64,000 nucleotides of DNA. Origin: Staphylococcus phage LY01. Positions 15,219 through 64,000 of this stretch are shown piece after piece. How positions within the stretch are numbered: position 1 is the first letter of the stretch; every line of letters starts with the position of its first letter. The position numbers and the translations under genes are program-made. The notes under the pieces are model-generated. The model saw only the letters and a list, made by a program, of their open reading frames with translations. It had not been told where the DNA came from and did no database searches. The stretch is from the sequence record OR836606.1, one strand, 5' to 3'.

Positions 15219-15245
15219 AATTTTCTATGATCCGAAAAAAAAAAT

Positions 15246-15283
15246 ATACCCATACACTCATTAATATAGAGTGTATGGGTATA
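15246..15283. terminator. bidirectional terminator ACCCATACACTC-ATTAATATA-GAGTGTATGGGT
   Basis: 12-bp stem with A-run and T-run on either side, between convergent genes. Confidence 0.6.
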
Positions 15284-15300
15284 TTTTTAATATTTTTTTT

Positions 15301-34873: not shown

Positions 34874-35286
34874 TTATTCTATATAACTTTCTATATCTAC
34901 TTCATTTTGTTTAATTGTCATGTCATGGAAAGATTTCATTGAGCTTGTTACAATAGCTTGAGCCACTTGGTTGACCAGTAGACCAATATTCTCAATTCCT
35001 AATTTATAAGGTAATTCTCCCGCACATTTACTACAAATATCTTCATTAGCACAATACATAGGACTTCTAAACTCTAATACTTTACCCATATAATCATCAA
35101 CATTTTCAGGAGTTAACAAAATTAATTGACCCGATCTCGCATTGTTATCTTTGAAATATCTATACATCATTAATGATGCGTTTGACTTGTCTAATGTCAA
35201 TTTAAGAAAATGATTCGTTCTACAATCCGAACCTTTTTTATCTAAAACTGTTGTTTGAAAGGCTGACATCAATTGCTTGGCTTGAT
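34874..35286 (-). CDS. RNAP beta-prime-like subunit, 3'-terminal exon (interrupted gene; 5' boundary of this exon uncertain, anywhere 35240-35290)
   Basis: GSDCRTNHF aligns to beta-prime EDDCGTHEG. RSPMYCANEDICSKCAG..IENIGLLVNQVAQAIVTSS aligns to beta-prime VRSxxTC..GVCAxCYG..GExIGxIAAQSIGEPGTQ. Confidence 0.6.
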
Positions 35287-35420
35287 CTAATTTAATTTTT
35301 CTGTATTAGTACAATACAGATAAGACTATATCTTCTAATGTAATATATTTAGTCGTTGAACAACTTGTATTAAGTTGATGCTGATTAATCTAATAAGATA
35401 CTTCCAGCAATTAATATTAT
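35287..35420 (-). ncRNA. compact group I intron, copy G (short-5' subfamily), in the beta-prime-like gene; boundaries approximate
   Basis: On the minus strand: P AATTGCTGGAAG (35401-35412), Q TTAATCAGCATCA (35377-35389), R TGTTCAACGACTAAATA (35347-35363), S GATATAGTCT (35323-35332), P9 hairpin CTGTATTGTACTAATACAG (35301-35319). Confidence 0.65.
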
Positions 35421-35456
35421 TTAATGTGAGCATCAAGTTTACCCACCTTCTTGAGT
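35421..35456 (-). CDS. putative micro-exon of the beta-prime-like gene between introns F and G (frame and limits uncertain)
   Basis: In one frame it encodes (Y)SRRWVNLMLTLNNI. This matches the universally conserved beta-prime G(Y)LTRRLVDV segment and the paralog's GYLNRKITLLTSDL. No start codon in that frame. Confidence 0.4.
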
Positions 35457-35633
35457 CATTTATGTTAACTATATTAAAATAATACAGATCAGACTATATC
35501 AAAAACTCTATATGAGCTTAATTATATTTAGTCGTTGAACACTATTTTTAGTGATGCTGATTAACTTAATAAAGGATCTCAGCAATTAATAATTTTTCGT
35601 ATATTATATTACTATAATAAAGGGCATTCATAT
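35457..35633 (-). ncRNA. compact group I intron, copy F (long-5' subfamily with P1 hairpin GGTAT..ATGCC), in the beta-prime-like gene
   Basis: P TTAATTGCTGAGATCC, Q TTAATCAGCATCA, R TGTTCAACGACTAAATA, S GATATAGTCTGATC, P9 CTGTATTATTTTAATATAG, terminal ..TTAACATAAATG (omega-G at 35457). Confidence 0.7.
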
Positions 35634-36431
35634 ACCTAGTGCACGTCCAGCTGAACCAGCAGTCATGACATCTCCAAACATATAAAGTTCATTAGGATCA
35701 ATTCCTTCAGCTAGTGAGCTTTTAGCAATTCTAATTTTACTTGGATCAGCAAAGTTTTTATTGGCTCCACGAATCAATGCAGTTAATTTATAGTTATTAC
35801 CGAATGAACCACGTGAACCACTATCATAAATATCTAAATCGGCTAAACCTTTTAATTCTTCTTTACTTAATTTAATTAATTCTTTTTCAATAGCAGATAT
35901 TGCGTTTAATTCTTCTCCAGAAGTATTCAACTCTTTTTCATATTTAACTAATAATTCTTCTTTCTTTTGTTTAACCTTATCAGTAGCAGTCATCATTGTA
36001 GTAGTTAAACTAGAATTAATAAAACTAGCTATAGAGAATCCTAACCATTGTAATTTATCAATGTAATCTGACATTTCTTGTGTAGTAATAATATCATTGA
36101 GTAATAAGTTTGATAAATCAGATTGAAGCTTACCAATTCCAGAACCACCCATATCGTGATTCATATATCCTATAATTGGCCCAATTTTATTATCTAAAAT
36201 AAATTTATTAAATATATATCTACCTACAGTAGTCTTTTCATCTTTTTTATTATAAACTAAATCTTTTTTTAATGTAAATTTATCTGATGGATTATACATT
36301 GGTTCTGTATTCTGTCTAAAGGCAAATAATTCTTTTAACTTGTCTAATGTAATATCATCTTTACCAACACTTAATAATGTAGATACTTCTTTTTCGTTAA
36401 GTGTTTTATTCTCATAATTCATATTAGCCAA
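35634..36431 (-). CDS. RNAP beta-prime-like subunit, C-terminal gene segment (first exon of interrupted gene; own ATG start)
   Basis: EGIDPNELYMFGDVMTAGSAGRALG aligns to beta-prime [25 protein letters not shown] (trigger-loop region). Minus-strand ORF 35628..36431 from the track. Confidence 0.65.
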
Positions 36432-36970
36432 TTTATTTTCACTTCTTTCATTATTTTATTCATATTTAGATGTTATTGAGCATTTTATAATTTTTATATA
36501 ATTAAACAATGTATATGAAGTTAATAGTTATTTTTATATTAAATATTTAATTGTATTAATTTAATAAAGATAATATAAATAGTCAATGATTTATATTAAA
36601 TTAATATAAATTACAGAAATAAATTATGTAAAAACTATAAATTTTTATAATTATGTGATAAAAAATTTGAAAATGCCCGGAATATTATAATTATATTATA
36701 ATAAAATTATAATAATAAATATATTATTCTTATAATATATTTATATAAATTAAAATATTATGAGGGGATAGTACACATTTTTATTTCATAAAAATGTATT
36801 AAGAAAATAACGAACGAAGTGAGTTATTTTATTTATATAAATCCAATTAAAATACATAACAATAATAATCAAAACTATTGTATATAGGAAATTTATTGAA
36901 TAATATTATAAAATAAAAATAATATAAATATATTAATCAATAAAATTAAATACGGAAAGGAATGGCATAA
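36432..36970. promoter_or_regulatory. ~540-bp extremely AT-rich divergent intergenic region between the two intron-containing RNAP genes (probable divergent promoters)
   Basis: No ORF. Long runs of ATAATATAAATA-type repeats. Flanked by the starts of the minus-strand beta-prime-like and plus-strand beta-like genes. Confidence 0.3.
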
Positions 36971-38560
36971 TTGAAATATCTTAATAGATTAAAAAATCTT
37001 AAATTCTATTCAATATCTGGATATAAAATTAAAGCTATTGATGAAGAAATCGAAGATAAGAAAAAAGATCAGTTAGTTATTTATAAAGGTTTTAAAGAAA
37101 ATTCATTTACTGATTTTTTAAATAGTGGATTATTATATCATCAGAATTTTAAGAATATCTATATTCCGAGATTGTATAGAACTAGAAATAGAAGAACTAG
37201 ATTATTAACAAATATAACAGATTATCAAAAAGAGATTAAATCTAAATCTTACAAACAGTATAGAGTTGAAAGAAATGAGAAATTATTTAAAGGTAGAAAC
37301 TATATTGTTGATTCAACTAAATTTATTGATTTAGAAGATAAATCATTAATAACTAGAAATTTTAATACAGTATTGGATTCAATTAAATCAACTTTTAATT
37401 CTTTAAATAATGCAGAAGATTACAATAATTTATTATATGTAATTAATGTTGATGGGTATAATAAGTCTTCTCAAGAAGCAATTAGACCTAATACAAAAGA
37501 TTTCATGTCAAGCTTATTCATGATGATTAAGAATCAAGAGGAATTACCTCATGGTGAAAATCAAAATATTAATTTATTATTTGTCTCATTAGATAATGGA
37601 ATAATGTTTAAATTTGATTATAAAGATTATAATAAACTTAATATGAGACTTAGACAAAGATTAAGAAGAATCATTGATACTAATACACAAGCATTAGATA
37701 CTGATGAAATTAGTAAAGTTGAAGATGATGACAATACTGAAGCTGTAGATGGAGTAATTAAAAAGAAAGCATTTGATAATGTAGGAACAATTGATCCTAT
37801 CGAAGCTCAGAACGATGAAGCTGAATATGAAAATGATGAACAGTTAGAAAAAATATCTAATAAAATAGATTCTACAATAAGTTATATTAGATCATTAGAC
37901 AATACTGAAATGGATGTTGATGATGAATATAATATAGCTATGATAATTGAAAAAGAATTAAATAATAATAAAGATTTAATTGATATTGATACTGAAACAT
38001 TATATTCGGATGTATTGGATAAAAATGATTCATTTAAATCAATTAAGAGAAATATTAAAAATAAATCTAGTATTGGCGATGAAGCACTTAAAAATACTAA
38101 AAAGATATTAGCTTTATCCAAGAAACAAGATGAATACCTTAATGATTTAGAGGATTTTAGCTTTTCTGAAGATAAATTAATCGATAGAGAAATTAATGAA
38201 AATATTAATAATATTAATGAAGAGACTATTAATAATATTGCTTCTAATGATTTTGATGTTTCTTATATGCAAAAAACATTTAATAAAGACTTTATTGATA
38301 TAATGAAAAGCTTTAATGACAATGAAGATATTCCGGTATTTATTAATAAAATGAATATTGAAGATAATTCAGATAGTCAATCATTAAAAAATACAGTTAA
38401 AGTTCAATTTAGAAGTCCAGACGGTTTAACTCATAATGTTAAATTTGATGTTCCTAAAGTTATTGACGGTAAGTACATGAAGCTTAACGGTGGGAAAAAG
38501 ATATTAACTAAACAGTTAATGATGTGGCCAATCGTTAAATATAAACCGGATTGTTCATAA
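36971..38560 (+). CDS. RNAP beta-like subunit, exon 1 (N-terminal part; TTG start per ORF track; true exon end probably at a U within 38551-38557)
   Basis: C-terminal KYMKLNGGKKILTKQLMMWPIVKYKPD aligns to RpoB [25 protein letters not shown]. Confidence 0.6.
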   Translation: MKYLNRLKNLKFYSISGYKIKAIDEEIEDKKKDQLVIYKGFKENSFTDFLNSGLLYHQNFKNIYIPRLYRTRNRRTRLLTNITDYQKEIKSKSYKQYRVERNEKLFKGRNYIVDSTKFIDLEDKSLITRNFNTVLDSIKSTFNSLNNAEDYNNLLYVINVDGYNKSSQEAIRPNTKDFMSSLFMMIKNQEELPHGENQNINLLFVSLDNGIMFKFDYKDYNKLNMRLRQRLRRIIDTNTQALDTDEISKVEDDDNTEAVDGVIKKKAFDNVGTIDPIEAQNDEAEYENDEQLEKISNKIDSTISYIRSLDNTEMDVDDEYNIAMIIEKELNNNKDLIDIDTETLYSDVLDKNDSFKSIKRNIKNKSSIGDEALKNTKKILALSKKQDEYLNDLEDFSFSEDKLIDREINENINNINEETINNIASNDFDVSYMQKTFNKDFIDIMKSFNDNEDIPVFINKMNIEDNSDSQSLKNTVKVQFRSPDGLTHNVKFDVPKVIDGKYMKLNGGKKILTKQLMMWPIVKYKPDCS

Positions 38561-38589
38561 CAGTCCACTTTTATAGCAATATGAAAGTA

Positions 38590-38730
38590 AAAAGAATATT
38601 AATTGCTGAAACGGTTTTATTAAATTAATCAGCATCAATTATTATTAATTGTTCAACGACTAAATATATTCACTCTTATTGAGAGTATGATATAGTCTGT
38701 GCTCTAAATTGATAATTTAGAGATTGTATA
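38590..38730 (+). ncRNA. group I intron core, copy E (5' ribozyme moiety of an IStron-like element) in the beta-like gene
   Basis: P TTAATTGCTGAAACGG (38599-), Q TTAATCAGCATCA (38625-37), R TGTTCAACGACTAAATA (38651-67), S GATATAGTCT (38689-98), P9-like TGTATAAAATACAG (38715-28). Confidence 0.7.
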
Positions 38731-38803
38731 AAATACAGATAAAAAATTCATATCAGAATTTCTCTTAACATATTTTTATAATATGATTAGGAGGTGAAAT
38801 TAA

Positions 38804-40006
38804 ATGATAAACAAAAACGGAAAATTAGTTAAATCTTTCAAAACTAGAATATACCCAAATCAAGATCAAATAAATTATTTCAATAAATGTTTTGGTGTAA
38901 GAAGAAAAATATGGAATATGGCTTTAGAAGACTATCAAAATAAAGATGATGACGCTCAATTTAGCGGATTTGATTATCAGAAAAAATTAAATAATGAAAT
39001 TTATGAATCTGGTAAATATCCCTATCTTTATGAAGTTAATAGCATGGTTAGACAAGAAGCTTTAAAAGACTTAGATGAATCTTTTAAAATATATAGAAAT
39101 GAACAAAAGAAAGCTAGAAAGTCTAAAGATGCAATTGACACTGAAAAATTTAAACCCAAGTTTAAAAAGAAAAAACATTCTAATGAGTCATTTAGATTTA
39201 TGGTTAAAGATAAGAAATATTTACCTATTAGATTTTTATCTAAGAAATGGATAAAAATTTCCGTAATGAAAGGAATTAAACCTTTTATAATCAAATCTAA
39301 AGAATCAATGAAGTTTATTAATTCTAATAACCATAGATTTCTCACTTACACTATAAGCAGAAAGAATGAAAAATATTATATTTCTGTAACTTATGAGATA
39401 AACAATTATAAGAAACAGAGATTGAATAATGATTCAATTGGTATTGATATGGGTATGAAAACACCATTAGTATGTGTAGATTCAAATGGTCAAACATTTG
39501 AATTTAAAATCCCACATAACTTATGGAAACAAGAAAGAAAAACTGAGAAATTGCAAGCAAAACTATCAAGTAAGAAATATTATTCAAAATCATATTACAA
39601 AACTTTAAAACAATTAAGAAAATCTTATAATAGAGAGTGTAATATATTAGAAGATTATAGAGATAAAATCACTAATTGGTTAGTTAAAAACTATAAAGTG
39701 ATTAATATTGAACCATATAGTCATAAAGCTTCTAATAATTTAAGAAATGCTCGTAGATCTAATAGAAGATTTGGCAAATATGATTTCCTAGAAAAATTAA
39801 AGTATAAGATTTTACAATATGATAATGAATTGAATATAATTACTAAAAAGAAAACTACACAAACATGCTCATCATGCGGTTATGTAAGAACTAACGATGA
39901 GAAACTTGTCATTGGCGATGATATTCATGATTGTCCTAAATGTAATGTAGTTCTTGATAGAGATTTAAATGCGGCTAAAAATATTCTAGATTTAAAATAT
40001 GTTTAA
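38804..40006 (+). CDS. tnpB: TnpB (OMEGA RNA-guided RuvC-like nuclease / IS605 OrfB)
   Basis: N-terminal KTRIYPNQDQINYFNKCFGVRRKIWNMALE. RuvC-I IGIDMGMKT, RuvC-II ..VINIEPY.., zinc finger CSSCGYV..CPKCN, RuvC-III VLDRDLNAAKNIL. 400 aa. Confidence 0.85.
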   Translation: MINKNGKLVKSFKTRIYPNQDQINYFNKCFGVRRKIWNMALEDYQNKDDDAQFSGFDYQKKLNNEIYESGKYPYLYEVNSMVRQEALKDLDESFKIYRNEQKKARKSKDAIDTEKFKPKFKKKKHSNESFRFMVKDKKYLPIRFLSKKWIKISVMKGIKPFIIKSKESMKFINSNNHRFLTYTISRKNEKYYISVTYEINNYKKQRLNNDSIGIDMGMKTPLVCVDSNGQTFEFKIPHNLWKQERKTEKLQAKLSSKKYYSKSYYKTLKQLRKSYNRECNILEDYRDKITNWLVKNYKVINIEPYSHKASNNLRNARRSNRRFGKYDFLEKLKYKILQYDNELNIITKKKTTQTCSSCGYVRTNDEKLVIGDDIHDCPKCNVVLDRDLNAAKNILDLKYV

Positions 40007-40180
40007 TTAATTTCACAAAATAAAAGATATGAGAGTCGCCTGCGGTCAGCGGGAGACGATAAACGGGTGATAAGCTAATGTCTGATTAGCTTTACAAGGA
40101 GTACAGAGGTACCTCTATACGTTAGTCACTGAGCCAAGTGTATTTTATACAAGATCTTGCCTTTAGATTTAATTATTTAA
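40007..40180 (+). ncRNA. putative omega-RNA (reRNA) scaffold at the right end of the TnpB element
   Basis: GC content jumps (GAGAGTCGCCTGCGGTCAGCGGGAGACGATAAACGGGTGATAAGC..) immediately after the tnpB stop. Multiple stems present. The position is typical of IS605-family omega-RNAs. Confidence 0.45.
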
Positions 40181-41571
40181 AATCAAGATTTAACAAGACA
40201 GACAGTATGGATTACAACTAACTATAATAAATTCATTATAGAAAAATTTGGTTATAAAGAAAATGCTGAAACTGAATGGATCAAGAAAGTTATTGAAGAT
40301 GACCAAGTTATAGATTATATTGAAAATAAATCTAACTTATCTGTTAAAAAAGGTAATGCTTCTTTAATCAATAATAAATATGTAACTTCAGTTATTTATA
40401 ATAGCTTATCTAGAAATATATTAAATTTCCAAGATGACACTAATGTACTTGAATTTAATCAAAGAAGTTTATTAGCGATGATTTCTGATAGTGCTAGTTT
40501 ATCTAAAATTGATTATGATCAAGATAAATATTTCCCTATTGGTTATAATATTAATAAATCTAAATTAATATTAGCAGATAAGACAGAATCTGTTATGTAT
40601 GAATGTAGTAAGACTAATATTAAGTCAATGGAAATGAATATATTTGATTACCTTATTGATAAATTAGACAATGAAGTTGACTTTGGTGTTATTGATAAGA
40701 AATTCAGTAAGAATATTCAGGCTAATAAGACTATGGCATTTTCACGTGTTAAAATTACTAATAAATTAGTACCTACAATTTTATTATTAGGTTTCTATAA
40801 AGGTTTAACTAGTATTCTTGATCTTTATGAAGTTGATTATAAATTTACTACTGAGAATGAAAGAATTAGTATTCATGATAAAAAGAATAAAATTAAATTC
40901 CAAGATGGTTATTTAATATACTCTACTGATAAATTAAGATATGATTTATTAATGTCTGGATTAACTGTATTGCCTACATCACAATACAATTTCAGTGATT
41001 TTGAAACTGAAACACCTTACTTAGAATATTTCAATGATAAATTCTACAGTCGTAATGTTGGTAAAGGTATCAAAAATACTATGGATTTAGCAATGGATCC
41101 TATTACTAAAGAAGTATTAAGGGATTTAAAACTTCCTGATAATATGGTTGAATTATTACTATTAGCTAATACGATGTTAGAAGATGTATCAGCTAGAGAT
41201 CATAATGATATGGGAATTTATCGTGTACGTGGCCCAGAACAAATTAATGCATTATTATATAAAATGATGGCAAATGCTTATAAAGAATATTCAGATTCTT
41301 ATAATAATAAAAATCCTAAGAATATTTCAGTTAAACAAGATCAATTAATTAAAACTATTATGGAACAACCTACAGTGGATGAAGTATCTGATTTAAACCC
41401 TAACTTAGAAATAGATAAGATGACTTCTGTTACATTTAAAGGACCTGCTGGACGTAACTCTGAACAATCATATGAACCTGATATTCGTTCTTACGATGAA
41501 AGTATGCAAGGTATATTAGGAATAAGTACACCTGACAGTAATAAGGTAAATTACTTGCCCTTAATTACAGT
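40181..41571 (+). CDS. RNAP beta-like subunit, exon 2 (true 5' splice acceptor somewhere after 40181; ORF track shows only 40478..41578)
   Basis: FSRVKITNKLVPTILLLGFYKGLTSILDLY aligns to RpoB FVRIDRRRKLPATIILRAL..EQILDLF. FKGPAGRN..EPDIRSYDESMQGILGISTPDSNKVNYLPLITV aligns to [41 protein letters not shown]. Confidence 0.6.
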
Positions 41572-41727
41572 AATGTAATTCAATGAAAATTTATTAATTG
41601 CTAAAAATCTTTATTAAGATGATCAGCATCACTAAAAATAGTGTTCAACGACTAAATATAAATTCACTTATTATAAGTGTAAGATATAGTCTAATCTGTA
41701 TTAGATTATTATAGAATAATACAAATG
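41572..41727 (+). ncRNA. compact group I intron, copy A (short-5' subfamily); boundaries +/- a few nt
   Basis: P TTAATTGCTAAAAATC, Q AGATGATCAGCATCA, R TGTTCAACGACTAAATA, P8 CACTTATTATAAGTG, S GATATAGTCTAATC, P9 CTGTATTAGATTATTATAGAATAATACA, terminal AAATG. Confidence 0.7.
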
Positions 41728-41878
41728 AGGTATTGTCAGACAACTTTCATATGATACACAAATTAAATCTACTCGTGGTTATACTGATGGTAGTAAAAAA
41801 GATGTAAGTGATACAGCTTTATACACACCATTAGAATTATTAAATCCATATACTAGTAGACATGCGGATATACGAAAT
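41728..41878 (+). CDS. RNAP beta-like subunit, exon 3 (~50 codons)
   Basis: ..YTPLELLNPYTSRHADIRN aligns to RpoB ..SLIPFLEHDDANRA. The proposed junction gives LPLITV|GIVRQLSYDTQIK. Confidence 0.5.
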
Positions 41879-42034
41879 GAGGTAAGTTCGCAATAAAATT
41901 ATTTAATTGCTGGAAAGCTTTATTAAGTTAATCAGCATCAGTTAAAGACTGTTCAACGACTAAATAATAATTACCATTTATATGGTGAAGATATAGTCTA
42001 ATCTATATTAATTTAATATAGAATAATAAAAATG
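41879..42034 (+). ncRNA. compact group I intron, copy B (short-5' subfamily)
   Basis: P TTAATTGCTGGAAAGC, Q TTAATCAGCATCA, R TGTTCAACGACTAAATA, P8 ACCATTTATATGGT, S GATATAGTCTAATC, P9 CTATATTAATTTAATATAG, terminal AAAAATG. Same 156-nt length as copy A under independent boundary guesses. Confidence 0.7.
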
Positions 42035-42058
42035 TCACCTCGTATAGGAATGACTGGT
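42035..42058 (+). CDS. RNAP beta-like subunit, 8-codon micro-exon 4 (SPRIGMTG)
   Basis: RIGMTG aligns to RpoB RALMGA immediately before the QRQAVP motif. Confidence 0.45.
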
Positions 42059-42242
42059 ATTAAAATGAATGCCCTTTATTATAGTAATATAATATACGAA
42101 AAATATTTAATTGCTAAGAATCTTTAATTAAAGAAATTAGCATCAAATTAATACAATTTGTTCAACGACTAAATAATATTATACTTATTTAAGTATTTGA
42201 TATAGTCTGATCTGTATTAAATTAATACAGTTAACATAAATG
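42059..42242 (+). ncRNA. compact group I intron, copy C (long-5' subfamily with P1 hairpin GGTATT-AAAATG-AATGCC)
   Basis: P TTAATTGCTAAGAATC, Q AATTAGCATCA (compensatory TGCTAA/TTAGCA versus TGCTGG/ATCAGCA in other copies), R TGTTCAACGACTAAATA, P8 ATACTTATTTAAGTAT, S GATATAGTCTGATC, P9 CTGTATTAAATTAATACAG, omega-G at 42242. Confidence 0.75.
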
Positions 42243-42644
42243 ACTCAAGCTAAGCATTTAATTGCTACTAAAACAAATGACCGTCCATTAGTTGGTTCCG
42301 GTGTAGATAAATCTTTAGCCTACCAAATTTCAGACACATTTGCTTTTAAAGCTAAAGAAGATGGAAAAGTAACTTCTATTAATGAGAAAACAGGATTAAT
42401 GATTGTTGAATATATTAATGGAGATAAAGATGTAATTGATATATCTGAAAAACTTGCTAAAAACTCTAATGGCGGATTTTATCAAAATAATAAACTTACA
42501 CCGCAATTTGAAGTAGGTAAGAAATTTAATAAAGGACAAATATTAGCTAAAAATGATAATTACTTTGCAGGTTCTGGTAGTAATAATGATATTCAATTCA
42601 CTGCTGGTAAATTATCTAAAGTTGCAGTAGCTAGCTCATATGGT
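42243..42644 (+). CDS. RNAP beta-like subunit, exon 5 (134 codons, ends on GGU)
   Basis: TQAKHLIATKTNDRPLVGSGVDKSLAYQISDTFAFKAKEDGKV aligns to RpoB [39 protein letters not shown]. ..KLSKVAVASSYG aligns to ..MRVAFMPWNGYN. Confidence 0.65.
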
Positions 42645-42832
42645 ATTATAAATGCCTTTCATTATAGTAATATAATGTATAAAAAATATTTAATTGCTGG
42701 AAAGTCTTTATTAAGACAATCAGCATCATTAATTTATAATGTTCAACGACTAAATAATATTATACTTAATTAATATGTATTTGATATAGTCTAATCTGTA
42801 TTGATTAACTCTTAATGCAGTTAATATAAATG
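42645..42832 (+). ncRNA. compact group I intron, copy D (long-5' subfamily, P1 hairpin GGTATT-ATAA-ATGCC)
   Basis: P TTAATTGCTGGAAAGT, Q ACAATCAGCATCA, R TGTTCAACGACTAAATA, S GATATAGTCTAATC, P9 CTGTATTGATTAACTCTTAATGCAG, terminal TTAATATAAATG (omega-G 42832). Confidence 0.75.
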
Positions 42833-43591
42833 ACTTATGAGGACAGTTCTATTATTTCTAATAGTATGTCTGAAGCTATGTCAACTAAAGTTACTATGAA
42901 GAAAACAGTAAATTTAGCTTCCAATACGAATATTCAATATATTGTAAAAGAAGGTCAAAATGTACGTACAGGAGACCCATTAATGATATTTGAGAATTCA
43001 TTTGATGATGAAGGTATCGGTTCTTTATTAGATAAAATTGGATCTGAATTTGAACAAGAAATCCAAGATATTTCTAATAGAGCTGTTAGATCTAAATATA
43101 CAGGCGTAATTAAGAAAGTAAATATCTATTATAATGATGATATTGAAAATATGTCTCCTACATTAGCTAAATTGGTTAATAGTTATATTAATAAATCTAA
43201 GAATAAATATAAAGAATATAAAAATGCAGTTAAAGGTAACAAATCTACATTACCTGGATTAGATGTAGATATTCCTGCAGTTGAAAAAATCAATAATGAA
43301 AAAATTAAAGGTGAAAAAGTTGATGGTGTTCTTATTGAAATCTTTACAGAATATGAAGATGATATGAGTATCGGTGATAAGATTAGTTTCTATGGGGCGT
43401 GTAAAACGGTCATTGCTGACGTTACTCCACCTGACGAATCCCCTTATGCAGAATATAGACCTGATGAAGAAATTGAAGCTATATTCTCTCCATTAAGTAT
43501 CGTGTCTCGTATGACTACAGATATATATCTCATGTTGTTTACCAATAAAGCACTCATAGAGCTTAAGAGAAAAGTTAAAGATATGCTTTAA
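42833..43591 (+). CDS. RNAP beta-like subunit, exon 6 (in frame with exon 5 when joined GGU|ACU)
   Basis: TYEDSSIISNS aligns to RpoB NFEDSILVSER. The join gives ..SSYG|TYEDSSII. Confidence 0.65.
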   Translation, partial: TYEDSSIISNSMSEAMSTKVTMKKTVNLASNTNIQYIVKEGQNVRTGDPLMIFENSFDDEGIGSLLDKIGSEFEQEIQDISNRAVRSKYTGVIKKVNIYYNDDIENMSPTLAKLVNSYINKSKNKYKEYKNAVKGNKSTLPGLDVDIPAVEKINNEKIKGEKVDGVLIEIFTEYEDDMSIGDKISFYGACKTVIADVTPPDESPYAEYRPDEEIEAIFSPLSIVSRMTTDIYLMLFTNKALIELKRKVKDML

Positions 43592-62335: not shown

Positions 62336-64000
62336 TTAAATATCAAAATCAAATAACGGATCAAACATTGAATCTCCATCTTTACTGAAGAAGTTATTAG
62401 TTTCATCAGTACTTAATTGAGCTTTAATCTTTTCAAATATTAATGATTGTACTGGTGAAGGTGAACTTAAAATAGCACTACCTACATTTTTTAATTCAAT
62501 ATTAGGTTCAAAGTTAGGGTCTTTATAATTGATTCTTTCTTCATAACCTCCATTTAAGAATACCATATTTCTAATAATAGTTTCTAAATGAACACTCATA
62601 ACATTTGTACCTGATTTAAGTAATAAATCTGTTACATCATTGAACATTGCCTGATAGTTTTTTTCTTCATAGTCATTTCTAATGTATTTAGTACTTTCTA
62701 ATATAGATCGTATTTTAAGAAGTGGGTCAGCGACACCTTCATTTTTAATTTTAATATTAAATAAGAAATTTTCTTTTAAGTCTTTCATACTGAATATGAA
62801 TGCATTTTCGTCTTCATCGTAAAAATTATCTATAGTTTCAATATTTTGGTCTGGTATTTTAAGAGTTACAGGAGATTTAACAGTATGAGTTTTATTACCT
62901 ACTTTAAATTTAAAGCTTTTAGCTTTATATCTTCCATATTCATAATCTTCATTAATAATCATTTCATCAATAATGACTTTAGTCTTTTCATTACGAGGAA
63001 CAATATTGTCTCCAGAAAATTCAAAATGTTCTTTAAAGATATCAGGCCAAGAGAAACCAGATAATTGTACTGCTTGCAAGTGTTTTGTTGAAAGTAATTT
63101 TTGAGTCATAGGCTCTGTTAATCTTAAAGTAGCCAAAATGCCTACAGATAAGTTTCTATTAATATCGTATAAACGTTTGCCGTAACAAGTTTGACATATT
63201 TTTCCTTCAGATTCGGCACATGTAATAGGGGAACGTAATGGAACAATTTGTCCTATTAAATGAGTGTCTTCTTTAGAATTAATTAATTTTAATTCTTGAT
63301 CCTTATCATCATAATAGAATCTATCATTAAATCTATCTAATTTATCTTGACTGTCCATATTAACATAAACAAAATGTTTACTTCCGCAATCTTCATTTTC
63401 TGATAATTTTAAATCTGATGTTAATAAAGTAATTTTACGGTTTAAGTAGCCTGATTCACGTACTTTATTCTTAGAGTTCATTAATGCGTTTAATGAAGAT
63501 TCTGCATCAATAGCAAATTGTGTTGTATCTTTTAAACCACGCATGAATGAGGTATCAATAATATCAGTTACAACATCGCCACGAATATCTGGTTTATATC
63601 CCACGAAACTTAAAACTTCATTTAATTGTATCTTATTAATACCTGTTCCTGAATGTAAGAAAGTTTTATAATCATTTTCTTTATCAGATTTAATACGTTC
63701 AATTAATTTATGCATATTAGGTTTTTGAACTTCATTAATAATTTGTTGATAGTTTAAGCTAGGATCAATGTCTTCTTTATTAAAGTTAATTAATTTTTCT
63801 ACTTCTTTATCTTCATTAGCTAATCTCATAATATCATATAATGAAATAGAAGGACCGTCTAGAGGTAAAATATATTCATTTGAAAATATAGTTAATTCAT
63901 CAATAATAAATGCAATAGATTGACTAACTTTTATTGGGTCATGTCCTTCATGAATAAAATTGACAACAACTTTGTCAAAATAATCATAATAATCATCAAT
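62336..64000 (-). CDS. second, intron-free RNAP beta-prime-like subunit (C-terminal part); 5'-partial, frame open to window end
   Basis: HGxRKGLxDTA..SGYLTRRLVDV region appears as FMRGLKDTTQFAIDAESSLNALMNSKNKVRESGYLNRKITLLTSDL. ENEDCGSKH aligns to EDDCGTHEG. VPLRSPITCAESEGKICQTCYGKRLYD..NLSVGILATLRLTEPMTQ matches VRSxxTC..GVCxxCYGRDLA..GExVGxIAAQSIGEPGTQ. No in-frame stop between the ATG at 63829 and nt 64000. Confidence 0.65.
   Translation of the reverse strand: MDDYYDYFDKVVVNFIHEGHDPIKVSQSIAFIIDELTIFSNEYILPLDGPSISLYDIMRLANEDKEVEKLINFNKEDIDPSLNYQQIINEVQKPNMHKLIERIKSDKENDYKTFLHSGTGINKIQLNEVLSFVGYKPDIRGDVVTDIIDTSFMRGLKDTTQFAIDAESSLNALMNSKNKVRESGYLNRKITLLTSDLKLSENEDCGSKHFVYVNMDSQDKLDRFNDRFYYDDKDQELKLINSKEDTHLIGQIVPLRSPITCAESEGKICQTCYGKRLYDINRNLSVGILATLRLTEPMTQKLLSTKHLQAVQLSGFSWPDIFKEHFEFSGDNIVPRNEKTKVIIDEMIINEDYEYGRYKAKSFKFKVGNKTHTVKSPVTLKIPDQNIETIDNFYDEDENAFIFSMKDLKENFLFNIKIKNEGVADPLLKIRSILESTKYIRNDYEEKNYQAMFNDVTDLLLKSGTNVMSVHLETIIRNMVFLNGGYEERINYKDPNFEPNIELKNVGSAILSSPSPVQSLIFEKIKAQLSTDETNNFFSKDGDSMFDPLFDFDI

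Follow-up and report, generated by a model that had tools for sequence, protein, structure and literature searches.

Two tandem group I introns and a probable 16-nt exon in the bridge-helix codons of the beta'-mid RNA polymerase gene of Staphylococcus phage LY01

The virion RNA polymerase (RNAP) beta'-mid gene of Staphylococcus phage LY01 lies on the minus strand of a 64,000-nt stretch of sequence record OR836606.1 (the window), which has a G+C content of ~25% and belongs to a Staphylococcus jumbo phage of the S6/MarsHill group. We conclude, with a probability of roughly 0.88, that the bridge-helix codons of this gene are interrupted by two independent group I introns that lack an open reading frame (ORF), here called F and G, that their insertion sites are 16 nt apart, and that splicing of both introns by the same rule restores the bridge helix. 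The gene and its parts are as follows:

36431..34874, minus strand: virion RNAP beta'-mid gene, interrupted by introns F and G
35634..36431, minus strand: exon 1, with a TTG start codon at 36431 and the 3' end ..GCA CTA GGT (A L G), the last T being 35634
35457..35633, minus strand: intron F, 177 nt, group I, without an ORF (evidence: Rfam RF00028, covariance model, relatives)
35441..35456, minus strand: micro-exon of 16 nt, ACTCAAGAAGGTGGGT, encoding T-Q-E-G-G and the first base of a Tyr codon
35287..35440, minus strand: intron G, 154 nt, group I, without an ORF (evidence: Rfam RF00028, covariance model, relatives)
34874..35286, minus strand: exon 3, which begins with ATCAAGCC and holds the DCRT motif and the stop codon

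The micro-exon and the spliced product

The canonical rule, by which the cut follows the U of P1 and the downstream exon is joined after the terminal G of the intron, was applied to both introns. The three exons then add up to 798 + 16 + 413 = 1227 nt, equal to the coding sequence (CDS) of the intron-less phage S6 (BDE75639), and the spliced translation, ..AGSAGRALG|TQEGG|YQAKQLMSAFQTTVLDKKGSDCRT.., is identical to that of S6 at 394 of 409 positions with zero gaps. The ligated mRNA is predicted to run ..GCA CTA GGT|ACT CAA GAA GGT GGG T|AT CAA GCC.., translated as ..A L G T Q E G G Y Q A K Q L M.., and the tryptic peptide ALGTQEGGYQAK of the predicted product spans both junctions. Exon 1 is collinear with the S6 CDS and with the Madawaska beta-prime mid-domain, and exon 3, read together with the preceding T, continues as Y-Q-A-K-Q-L-M... 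The same rule also yields full-length in-frame products in the phages Machias, AH12 and PB50; introns F and G measure 177 and 150 nt in Machias and 177 and 151 nt in AH12.

A first-pass annotation of this locus had described two tandem homologous group I introns, which is borne out by the covariance model and RF00028 matches presented below, and had quoted the sequences around intron F correctly: exon 1 ends ..GCA CTA GGT at T35634, ATATGAATGCC follows directly on the minus strand, and the conserved ..CATAAATG terminates at G35457, the terminal G of the intron (end ..AAAUG). Both of its translations are reproduced as well, GGT|ACTCAAG giving GRALGTQEGG-stop and the alternative join GGTATAT|ACTCAAG giving GRALGIYSRRWVNLMLTLNNI, although the two joins differ by 4 nt and not by the single nucleotide that had been assumed. 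What does not hold is the conclusion drawn from the first translation, that the splice rule of its homologues gives an inconsistent product when applied to intron F. From the Gly codons of TQEGG onwards, the sequence runs GGT GGG T|AA ACTTGAT GCTCAC; with GUGGGU/GCUCAC as P1, intron G starts at 35440 and the apparent stop straddles its 5' splice site, so that the inconsistency is not a real one. The TAA consists of one T from the exon and AA from intron G, and it would therefore be removed by splicing and never occur in the mRNA. When the identical rule is applied to intron F together with the intron G site after GGTGGGT, the 1227-nt product collinear with S6 results, and given this product none of the explanations that had been put forward (splice sites that are shifted, an error in sequencing or a polypeptide that is deliberately split) is needed. 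The 3' end of intron G, for which a position as far down as ~35243 had been considered, is G35287 (end ..AAAUUAG). The micro-exon had been rightly recognized as genuine and lacking a start codon of its own, but it comprises 16 nt (35441-35456) rather than ~35-45 nt.

The restored residues are among the most constrained of the protein: over 24 diverse homologues, T264 is >90% conserved and G268, Y269 and K272 are invariant, and the pattern G/x-T-x-x-G/S-G-Y-x-x-K is found in 39/39 full-length homologues (38 from the database plus S6). In HMMER comparisons, GTQEGGYQAKQLM aligns to a segment of solved bacterial beta' chains that we take, from established knowledge of bacterial RNAP, to be the bridge helix, and AGSAGRALGTQEGGYQAKQLMSAFQ..DCRT aligns to the ..DCGT stretch of these chains. 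By these alignments, the true bridge-helix counterpart is GGYQAKQLM. The segment GIYSRRWVNL, which had been regarded as reproducing a universally conserved stretch of beta-prime, occurs in 0/52 of the homologues that were inspected, namely S6 and 51 from the database. As had been reported, SGYLNRKITLLTSDL is present in the paralog at 62336-64000 (minus strand), and the resemblance of IYSRRWVNL, read in the other frame, is a coincidence.

Within the Staphylococcus jumbo phages, the region 34800-36500 matches nine genomes. S6, PALS_2, DC4, Madawaska and MarsHill share 92-94% identity with it and lack ~330 nt in its middle; Machias and AH12 match over the full length at 81% identity. The gene is annotated as "viral RNA polymerase beta-prime subunit, mid-domain" in Madawaska and Machias and forms a single uninterrupted CDS of 1227 nt in S6 and Madawaska. 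The micro-exon is identical in Machias and AH12, is joined to exon 1 in PB50 and to both neighbouring exons in S6 and Madawaska, and in the intron-less genes ACTCAAGAAGG(T/A/C)GGGT directly follows GGT. The variable base is the third of the micro-exon GGT codon, which pairs within P1 of intron G; the intron-less S6 and Madawaska genes carry GGA and GGC, respectively. At the level of gene sequence, these intron-less and single-intron relatives establish the positions of the junctions.

Ribozyme folds and splice-site pairings of introns F and G

Both introns were matched to RF00028 in a local search evaluated by E-value, intron F with 24.3 bits (E = 1e-3) and intron G with 34.1 bits (E = 1e-6). 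Scanning of the whole window with Rfam at gathering thresholds reported nothing, and a whole-window run by E-value also missed the introns, which were seen by the local search only. The R element GTTCAACGACTAAAT is exact in both introns and present in seven exact copies in the window, compared with ~3 near-matches expected by chance, while the S element AGATATAGTC is exact in intron G and has one mismatch in intron F; in both introns the R and S elements align to the Rfam consensus. A covariance model of the family (R1) finds exactly seven copies in the window, scoring 106-133 bits, among them intron F with 132.9, intron G with 111.6 and intron A of the neighbouring beta gene with 114.9 bits. 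The fold was further examined in a model-based alignment of 14 family members, covering helices P3, P4, P5, P6, P7, P8 and P9. Standard pairs fill 95.6% of the cells of the P3-P9 core and 24 of its 39 pairs change on both sides, values that were reached in 0/500 shuffles, and sliding the partners by 1-3 columns lowers the paired fraction to 27-45%; P7 (GACUA/UAGUC) is invariant over the 14 members. We regard the ribozyme fold as demonstrated by this covariation, and F and G, on the same sequence grounds, as real group I introns. An assignment to subgroup IA2, to which phage group I introns typically belong, did not hold. Subgroup IA is defined by helices P7.1/P7.2 between P7 and the 3' strand of P3, where every copy has just 3 nt following P7 (GACUA).

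The pairings that define the splice sites are likewise present in both introns. In intron F, the exon GGU and the intron AU pair with AUGCC, with the wobble U35634-G35625 at the cleavage site; three of these P1 pairs involve the exon, and the two further pairs within the intron (AU/AU) were assigned by inspection of the sequence. Its P10 guide UGAAU (35630-35626) pairs at 4/5 positions with ACUCA of the micro-exon, and the intron has a P2 hairpin with a GUAA loop, all helices from P3 to P9 and a P8 of 6 base pairs (bp). From the 5' splice site through P2, it differs from its counterparts in Machias and AH12 by three substitutions (in P2 and J2/3) and zero indels. In intron G, P1 consists of GUGGGU and GCUCAC (35431-35426), paired G-C, U-A, G-C, G-U, G-C and U-G with the wobble at the cleavage site, and this helix with its U-G wobble is recovered by the minimum-free-energy fold; the P10 guide CUUGAU (35437-35432) pairs with exon 3 AUCAAG over 6 bp without an unpaired position. 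Across the six short introns of the window (B-G), the P10 guide changes along with the 3' exon; no P10 was seen in intron A. The micro-exon is thus shared between the two ribozymes, its bases 1-5 belonging to P10 of intron F and its bases 11-16 to P1 of intron G, with a 5-nt spacer between them.

In the mechanism that we propose, each intron would fold as its own ribozyme and be removed by the standard two-step, guanosine-initiated transesterification, selecting its 5' splice site by the U-G wobble of P1 and aligning its 3' exon by P10. Intron F would hold ..GGU of exon 1 with GCC and ACUCA of the micro-exon with UGAAU, whereas intron G would hold GUGGGU of the micro-exon with GCUCAC and AUCAAG of exon 3 with CUUGAU, so that the 5' end of the micro-exon would be held by P10 of F and its 3' end by P1 of G. 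As these guide pairings are placed at the two ends of the micro-exon without overlap, splicing could begin with either intron, and either order would keep the recognition helix of the other. Skipping of the micro-exon, from the 5' site of F to the 3' site of G, is predicted to give ..GRALGIKPSN-stop; it should be made less likely by the guides, which differ between F and G, in line with engineering results (PMC10136302).

Several observations weigh against our interpretation. Both introns score below the RF00028 gathering score of 50; P1 of intron F contains only 3 exon base pairs; and the guide GCCC of this intron, by inspection, would pair slightly better with GGGU, the last four bases of the micro-exon, than with the AGGU of its own 5' splice site. 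Intron G lacks a P2 helix, and its P8 is a hairpin of at most 2 bp, with the entire 5' strand of P8 gapped by the covariance model and CAUUAG alone separating the 3' strand of P3 from J8/7; the absence of both helices puts its catalytic competence in question. The orthologues in Machias, AH12 and PB50 have retained a P8 of 4 bp (AUGA/UCAU), relative to which intron G has an 8-nt deletion within 35324-35346, and all six sister introns have a P8 of 5-7 bp. Exact-match scans of IMG/VR for the P8-less segment found no second occurrence. Finally, that the F and G RNAs splice themselves in infected cells is something we infer from sequence. In favour of a fully active intron G, which may thus still splice, are its perfect P1 and P10 helices and the intactness of the exon downstream.

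Occupancy of the two sites and competing explanations

Relatives that carry a single intron or a different one separate the two sites. In PB50, site 1 is empty and GGT ACT CAA GAA GGT GGG T runs on continuously from exon 1, followed by intron G alone (GGTACTCAAGAAGGTGGGT|AAATTAGATGCTCAC). In a Logan assembly contig from public run ERR10857033 (L010), an unrelated intron of ~320 nt occupies site 1 and is followed by ACACAAGAAGGTGGGT, an exon of again 16 nt, and then by a G-type intron; a further locus (L011) has site 2 occupied only, and six phages have neither intron. The occupancy in PB50, L010 and L011 identifies the two sites as independent insertion points 16 nt apart, and the micro-exon, judged from these sequences, is ordinary coding sequence that happens to have introns on both sides. 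Intron F is missing from S6, PALS_2, DC4, Madawaska, MarsHill, SA1 and PB50, and the exons of the window are S6-like (92-94%), yet its introns are of the Machias type: intron F and the Machias intron at this site share 90% identity although the flanking exons share only ~81%, and between intron G and its orthologues in Machias, AH12 and PB50 the identity is 77-79%. An exact-match scan of IMG/VR for the combined F/micro-exon/G junction found nothing. A search of the same resource for related loci returned 80, all apparently uninterrupted as judged by match length, but contiguous matches were ranked first, so that these numbers are no occupancy statistics.

Among the 120 homologue clusters listed, about ten consist of ORFs that are cut short at or beside the bridge-helix segment, several of them ending ..GG (site 2), one ending ..ALG (site 1) and three ending ..SYSR plus read-through, which marks the bridge-helix codons as a recurrent intron target. 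As a separate observation, the bridge-helix codons of other uncultured jumbo phages carry unrelated larger introns or insertions at site 1, at site 2 and nearby (L010 930-1384; L093 2770-3180; L095 2790-2870; L011 2310-2390; the junctions in L093 and L095 are approximate).

Four other explanations of the locus were weighed. The proposal that the splice site of intron F is shifted with respect to its beta-gene homologues (GGTATAT|..AAATG|ACTCAAG), leaving a micro-exon of ~35-45 nt that reads IYSRRWVNLMLTLNNI, draws on an existing frame whose translation loosely resembles a conserved beta-prime segment and the paralog SGYLNRKITLL; we see next to no chance for it, as the sequence it produces is in none of the 52 homologues inspected, its frame enters the P1/P3 region of intron G (..NNINCWKYLIRLISIN..) with no in-frame join to the conserved exon 3, the intron-less genes continue after GGT with the micro-exon as given above, and the bridge-helix counterpart lies in the other frame, in GGYQAKQLM. 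An error of 1 nt in sequencing or assembly near 35630 is equally negligible: nothing speaks for it beyond the perceived inconsistency, whereas the sequence as given splices to a gap-free match with S6 and shows no indels against Machias and AH12 between the 5' splice site and P2. There is slightly more to say for the view that the whole 347-nt stretch acts as one composite intron or twintron from which the 16 nt are skipped, as in the Machias record, which joins two exons only, and exon skipping is documented in Twort orf142 and in the Coxiella 23S rRNA (PMC10136302). Skipping would, however, lead to ..GRALGIKPSN-stop, a frameshifted and truncated protein; F and G are two complete covariance-model matches, each with its own P1, P10 and core, they are just 66% identical and differ in their P1/P10 guides, and their sites are independently occupied in PB50 and L010. 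We therefore consider a composite intron very improbable.

A genuine split of beta' has somewhat more in its favour but is still very unlikely. It supposes that intron G no longer splices, that translation stops at ..TQEGG-TAA and that the C-terminal part is made separately; it would fit the loss of P8 from intron G, the natural division of jumbo-phage RNAP subunits at other positions (PMC7598289), the annotation of AH12 and PB50 as two CDSs and the presence of an in-frame ATG 17 nt into exon 3. This ATG has no Shine-Dalgarno sequence, and its Met corresponds to a conserved internal residue (QLMSAFQ in S6). Moreover, the split would sever the bridge helix between the invariant G268 and Y269, exon 3 is undamaged and continues the frame of the micro-exon, and in P1 as well as in P10 intron G is matched to its flanking exons by a perfect helix of 6 bp. 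Two introns spliced by one rule around a 16-nt exon thus remain by far the most probable arrangement.

The public records of the relatives do not contain this arrangement. The Machias record (L003 578-2122) joins the beta'-mid CDS from two pieces only, and AH12 (L004 566-2120) and PB50 (L007 1180-2556) have two separate CDSs, the first of which ends at a pseudo-stop in intron F or G, so that the two-intron structure is unrepresented in all three and the micro-exon is omitted from their annotation. Machias and AH12 belong to the same phage group, with the same genes, orthologues of both introns and an identical 16-nt exon; the annotations of Machias, AH12 and PB50, unlike the structure described here, were made by protein alignment.

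Introns of the beta gene and relation to known systems

The divergently transcribed neighbour of the beta'-mid gene contains further members of the family. Set against the beta CDS of S6, which is uninterrupted and 4254 nt long, this beta gene contains five introns and, once spliced, also measures 4254 nt, with 1382 of 1418 positions identical. Its features are:

36971-43591, plus strand: virion RNAP beta gene
38552-40201, plus strand: intron A, 1650 nt, junctions set by the intron-less S6 gene
38804-40006, plus strand: TnpB ORF of 400 amino acids in intron A (Pfam OrfB_IS605, Cas12f1-like TNB, HTH_OrfB_IS605)
41548-41727, plus strand: intron B, 180 nt (S6 comparison, covariance model, P1/P10)
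41870-42034, plus strand: intron C, 165 nt, P1 UGCGGAU/GUUCGCA, no P2
42035..42058, plus strand: 24-nt exon TCACCTCGTATAGGAATGACTGGT (S-P-R-I-G-M-T-G), the second micro-exon, flanked by introns C and D and confirmed by the intron-less S6
42059-42242, plus strand: intron D, 184 nt, with the same P1/P10 guide and 10-nt target GGT|ACTCAAG as intron F
42645-42832, plus strand: intron E, 188 nt (S6 comparison, covariance model, P1/P10)

Altogether, seven group I introns lie within ~7.6 kb (35287-42832), all of them within the two RNAP genes. The splice rule that the first-pass annotation had derived from the beta gene holds in part: introns D (42059-42242) and E (42645-42832) obey it in the comparison with S6, with a GGU/AUGCC P1 and the end ..AAAUG, whereas intron C (41870-42034) has no GGU site and is cut after GCGGAT; a decoy GAGGT lies 14 nt inside this intron (41870-41883), and its use breaks the frame. 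Introns F and D, which have the guide and the 10-nt target in common, are 83% identical, and intron G is 75% identical to intron C. These similarities, together with the distribution among the relatives, suggest that the introns may move between phages and between similar target sites, although F and G encode no endonuclease. All seven introns follow GGT or GGAT, and the site of intron G, GGT|ATCAAGCCAAGCA, resembles that of intron D, GGT|ACTCAAGCTAAGCA. The look-alike sites hint at spread to similar targets by reverse splicing or by a shared preference of an endonuclease or transposon-adjacent motif (TAM).

Intron A has an IStron-like architecture. IStrons are group I introns fused to IS605/IS607 TnpB elements (PMC10690162), and like them intron A combines a ribozyme core, here of the same family, with a TnpB ORF and a structured 3' tail that reaches to the 3' splice site (PMC10690162). 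This tail, ~195 nt long, G+C-rich and conserved, ends exactly at the splice site and can be regarded as a candidate for an omega-RNA; a TnpA was not seen in the intron. A copy of the TnpB with 87% protein identity, preceded by the same ribozyme core, is located in a different Machias gene (L012 1280-2900). Similarity between the two elements starts at the 5' end right after ..GAT| and extends, with a mean column identity of ~90% over the aligned stretch including flanks, up to ..AACAAGACAG|, beyond which the sequences diverge, so the element ends coincide with the splice sites; the guide varies with the exon, GGAU/GUCC in intron A and AGAU/GUCU in the Machias copy, and the intron-less S6 site reads ..CCTGAT|ACTGTTTGG... 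Intron A thus looks like an IStron placed inside a jumbo-phage RNAP gene. Introns F and G have the ribozyme core in common with it (57-74% identity) but lack both the ORF and the omega-RNA-like tail, and the absence of a visible TnpA from intron A and the phage RNAP context set the present case apart from the described IStrons. Elsewhere in the window, on both strands of 15236-15290, a palindromic hairpin of ~55 nt matches Rfam mir-5583 with 40-43 bits (gathering score 80) and is probably a mere inverted repeat.

Introns in the RNAP genes of these phages and of AR9 have been published (bioRxiv 10.1101/2020.12.14.422802), and short exons between tandem group I introns are known from two systems, as far as they are summarized in PMC10136302: introns I2 and I3 of Twort orf142 flank an exon of 23 nt (Landthaler & Shub 1999, cited there) and tandem introns of the Coxiella burnetii 23S rRNA gene flank one of 34 nt, with exon skipping known in both. 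According to this account, Twort orf142 resembles the present locus in that tandem, related and ORF-less group I introns in a protein gene of a Staphylococcus phage enclose a very short exon without a start codon, whose inclusion is needed for the full-length protein; it differs in the longer exon (23 vs 16 nt) and in the gene, which is here that of a jumbo-phage RNAP beta' subunit, and introns F and G are more diverged (66% identity, different P1/P10 guides), with skipping only predicted. The Coxiella case, from the same source, shares the short exon between two independent group I introns of different lineages, but the exon is longer and lies in a bacterial rRNA gene instead of a phage protein gene. 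Neither introns in these genes nor short exons flanked by tandem group I introns are therefore unprecedented, and what is new is a shorter example in a new gene.

The contradiction at the origin of this analysis is resolved without unusual biology. The 16-nt micro-exon is shorter than the Twort 23-nt and Coxiella 34-nt cases quoted in PMC10136302, sits in the bridge helix of a phage RNAP between two differently guided group I ribozymes, and is accompanied by a second case of 24 nt in the beta gene. Group I introns are usually quoted as 250-500 nt long (PMC10964413). Intron G and its orthologues, at 150-154 nt, are well under such sizes. A benchmark for a small group I intron is that of Azoarcus, with 205 nt. 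A literature search on the smallest group I introns yielded nothing usable. It is a speculative and rather unlikely extension that the 150-190-nt introns of this family, including the 154-nt intron G without P2 and P8, might be the smallest naturally self-splicing group I ribozymes, derived as non-autonomous elements from the TnpB IStron of the beta gene and spreading among conserved RNAP codons with a GGT|A(C)TCAAG-like target, and that correct inclusion of a 16-nt exon, both ends of which are held in guide helices of the ribozymes, might need their ordered or cooperative action. The locus offers a system for examining what keeps tandem ribozymes from skipping an exon, and the lack of P2 and P8 in intron G prompts the question of the minimal size at which a group I ribozyme still works.

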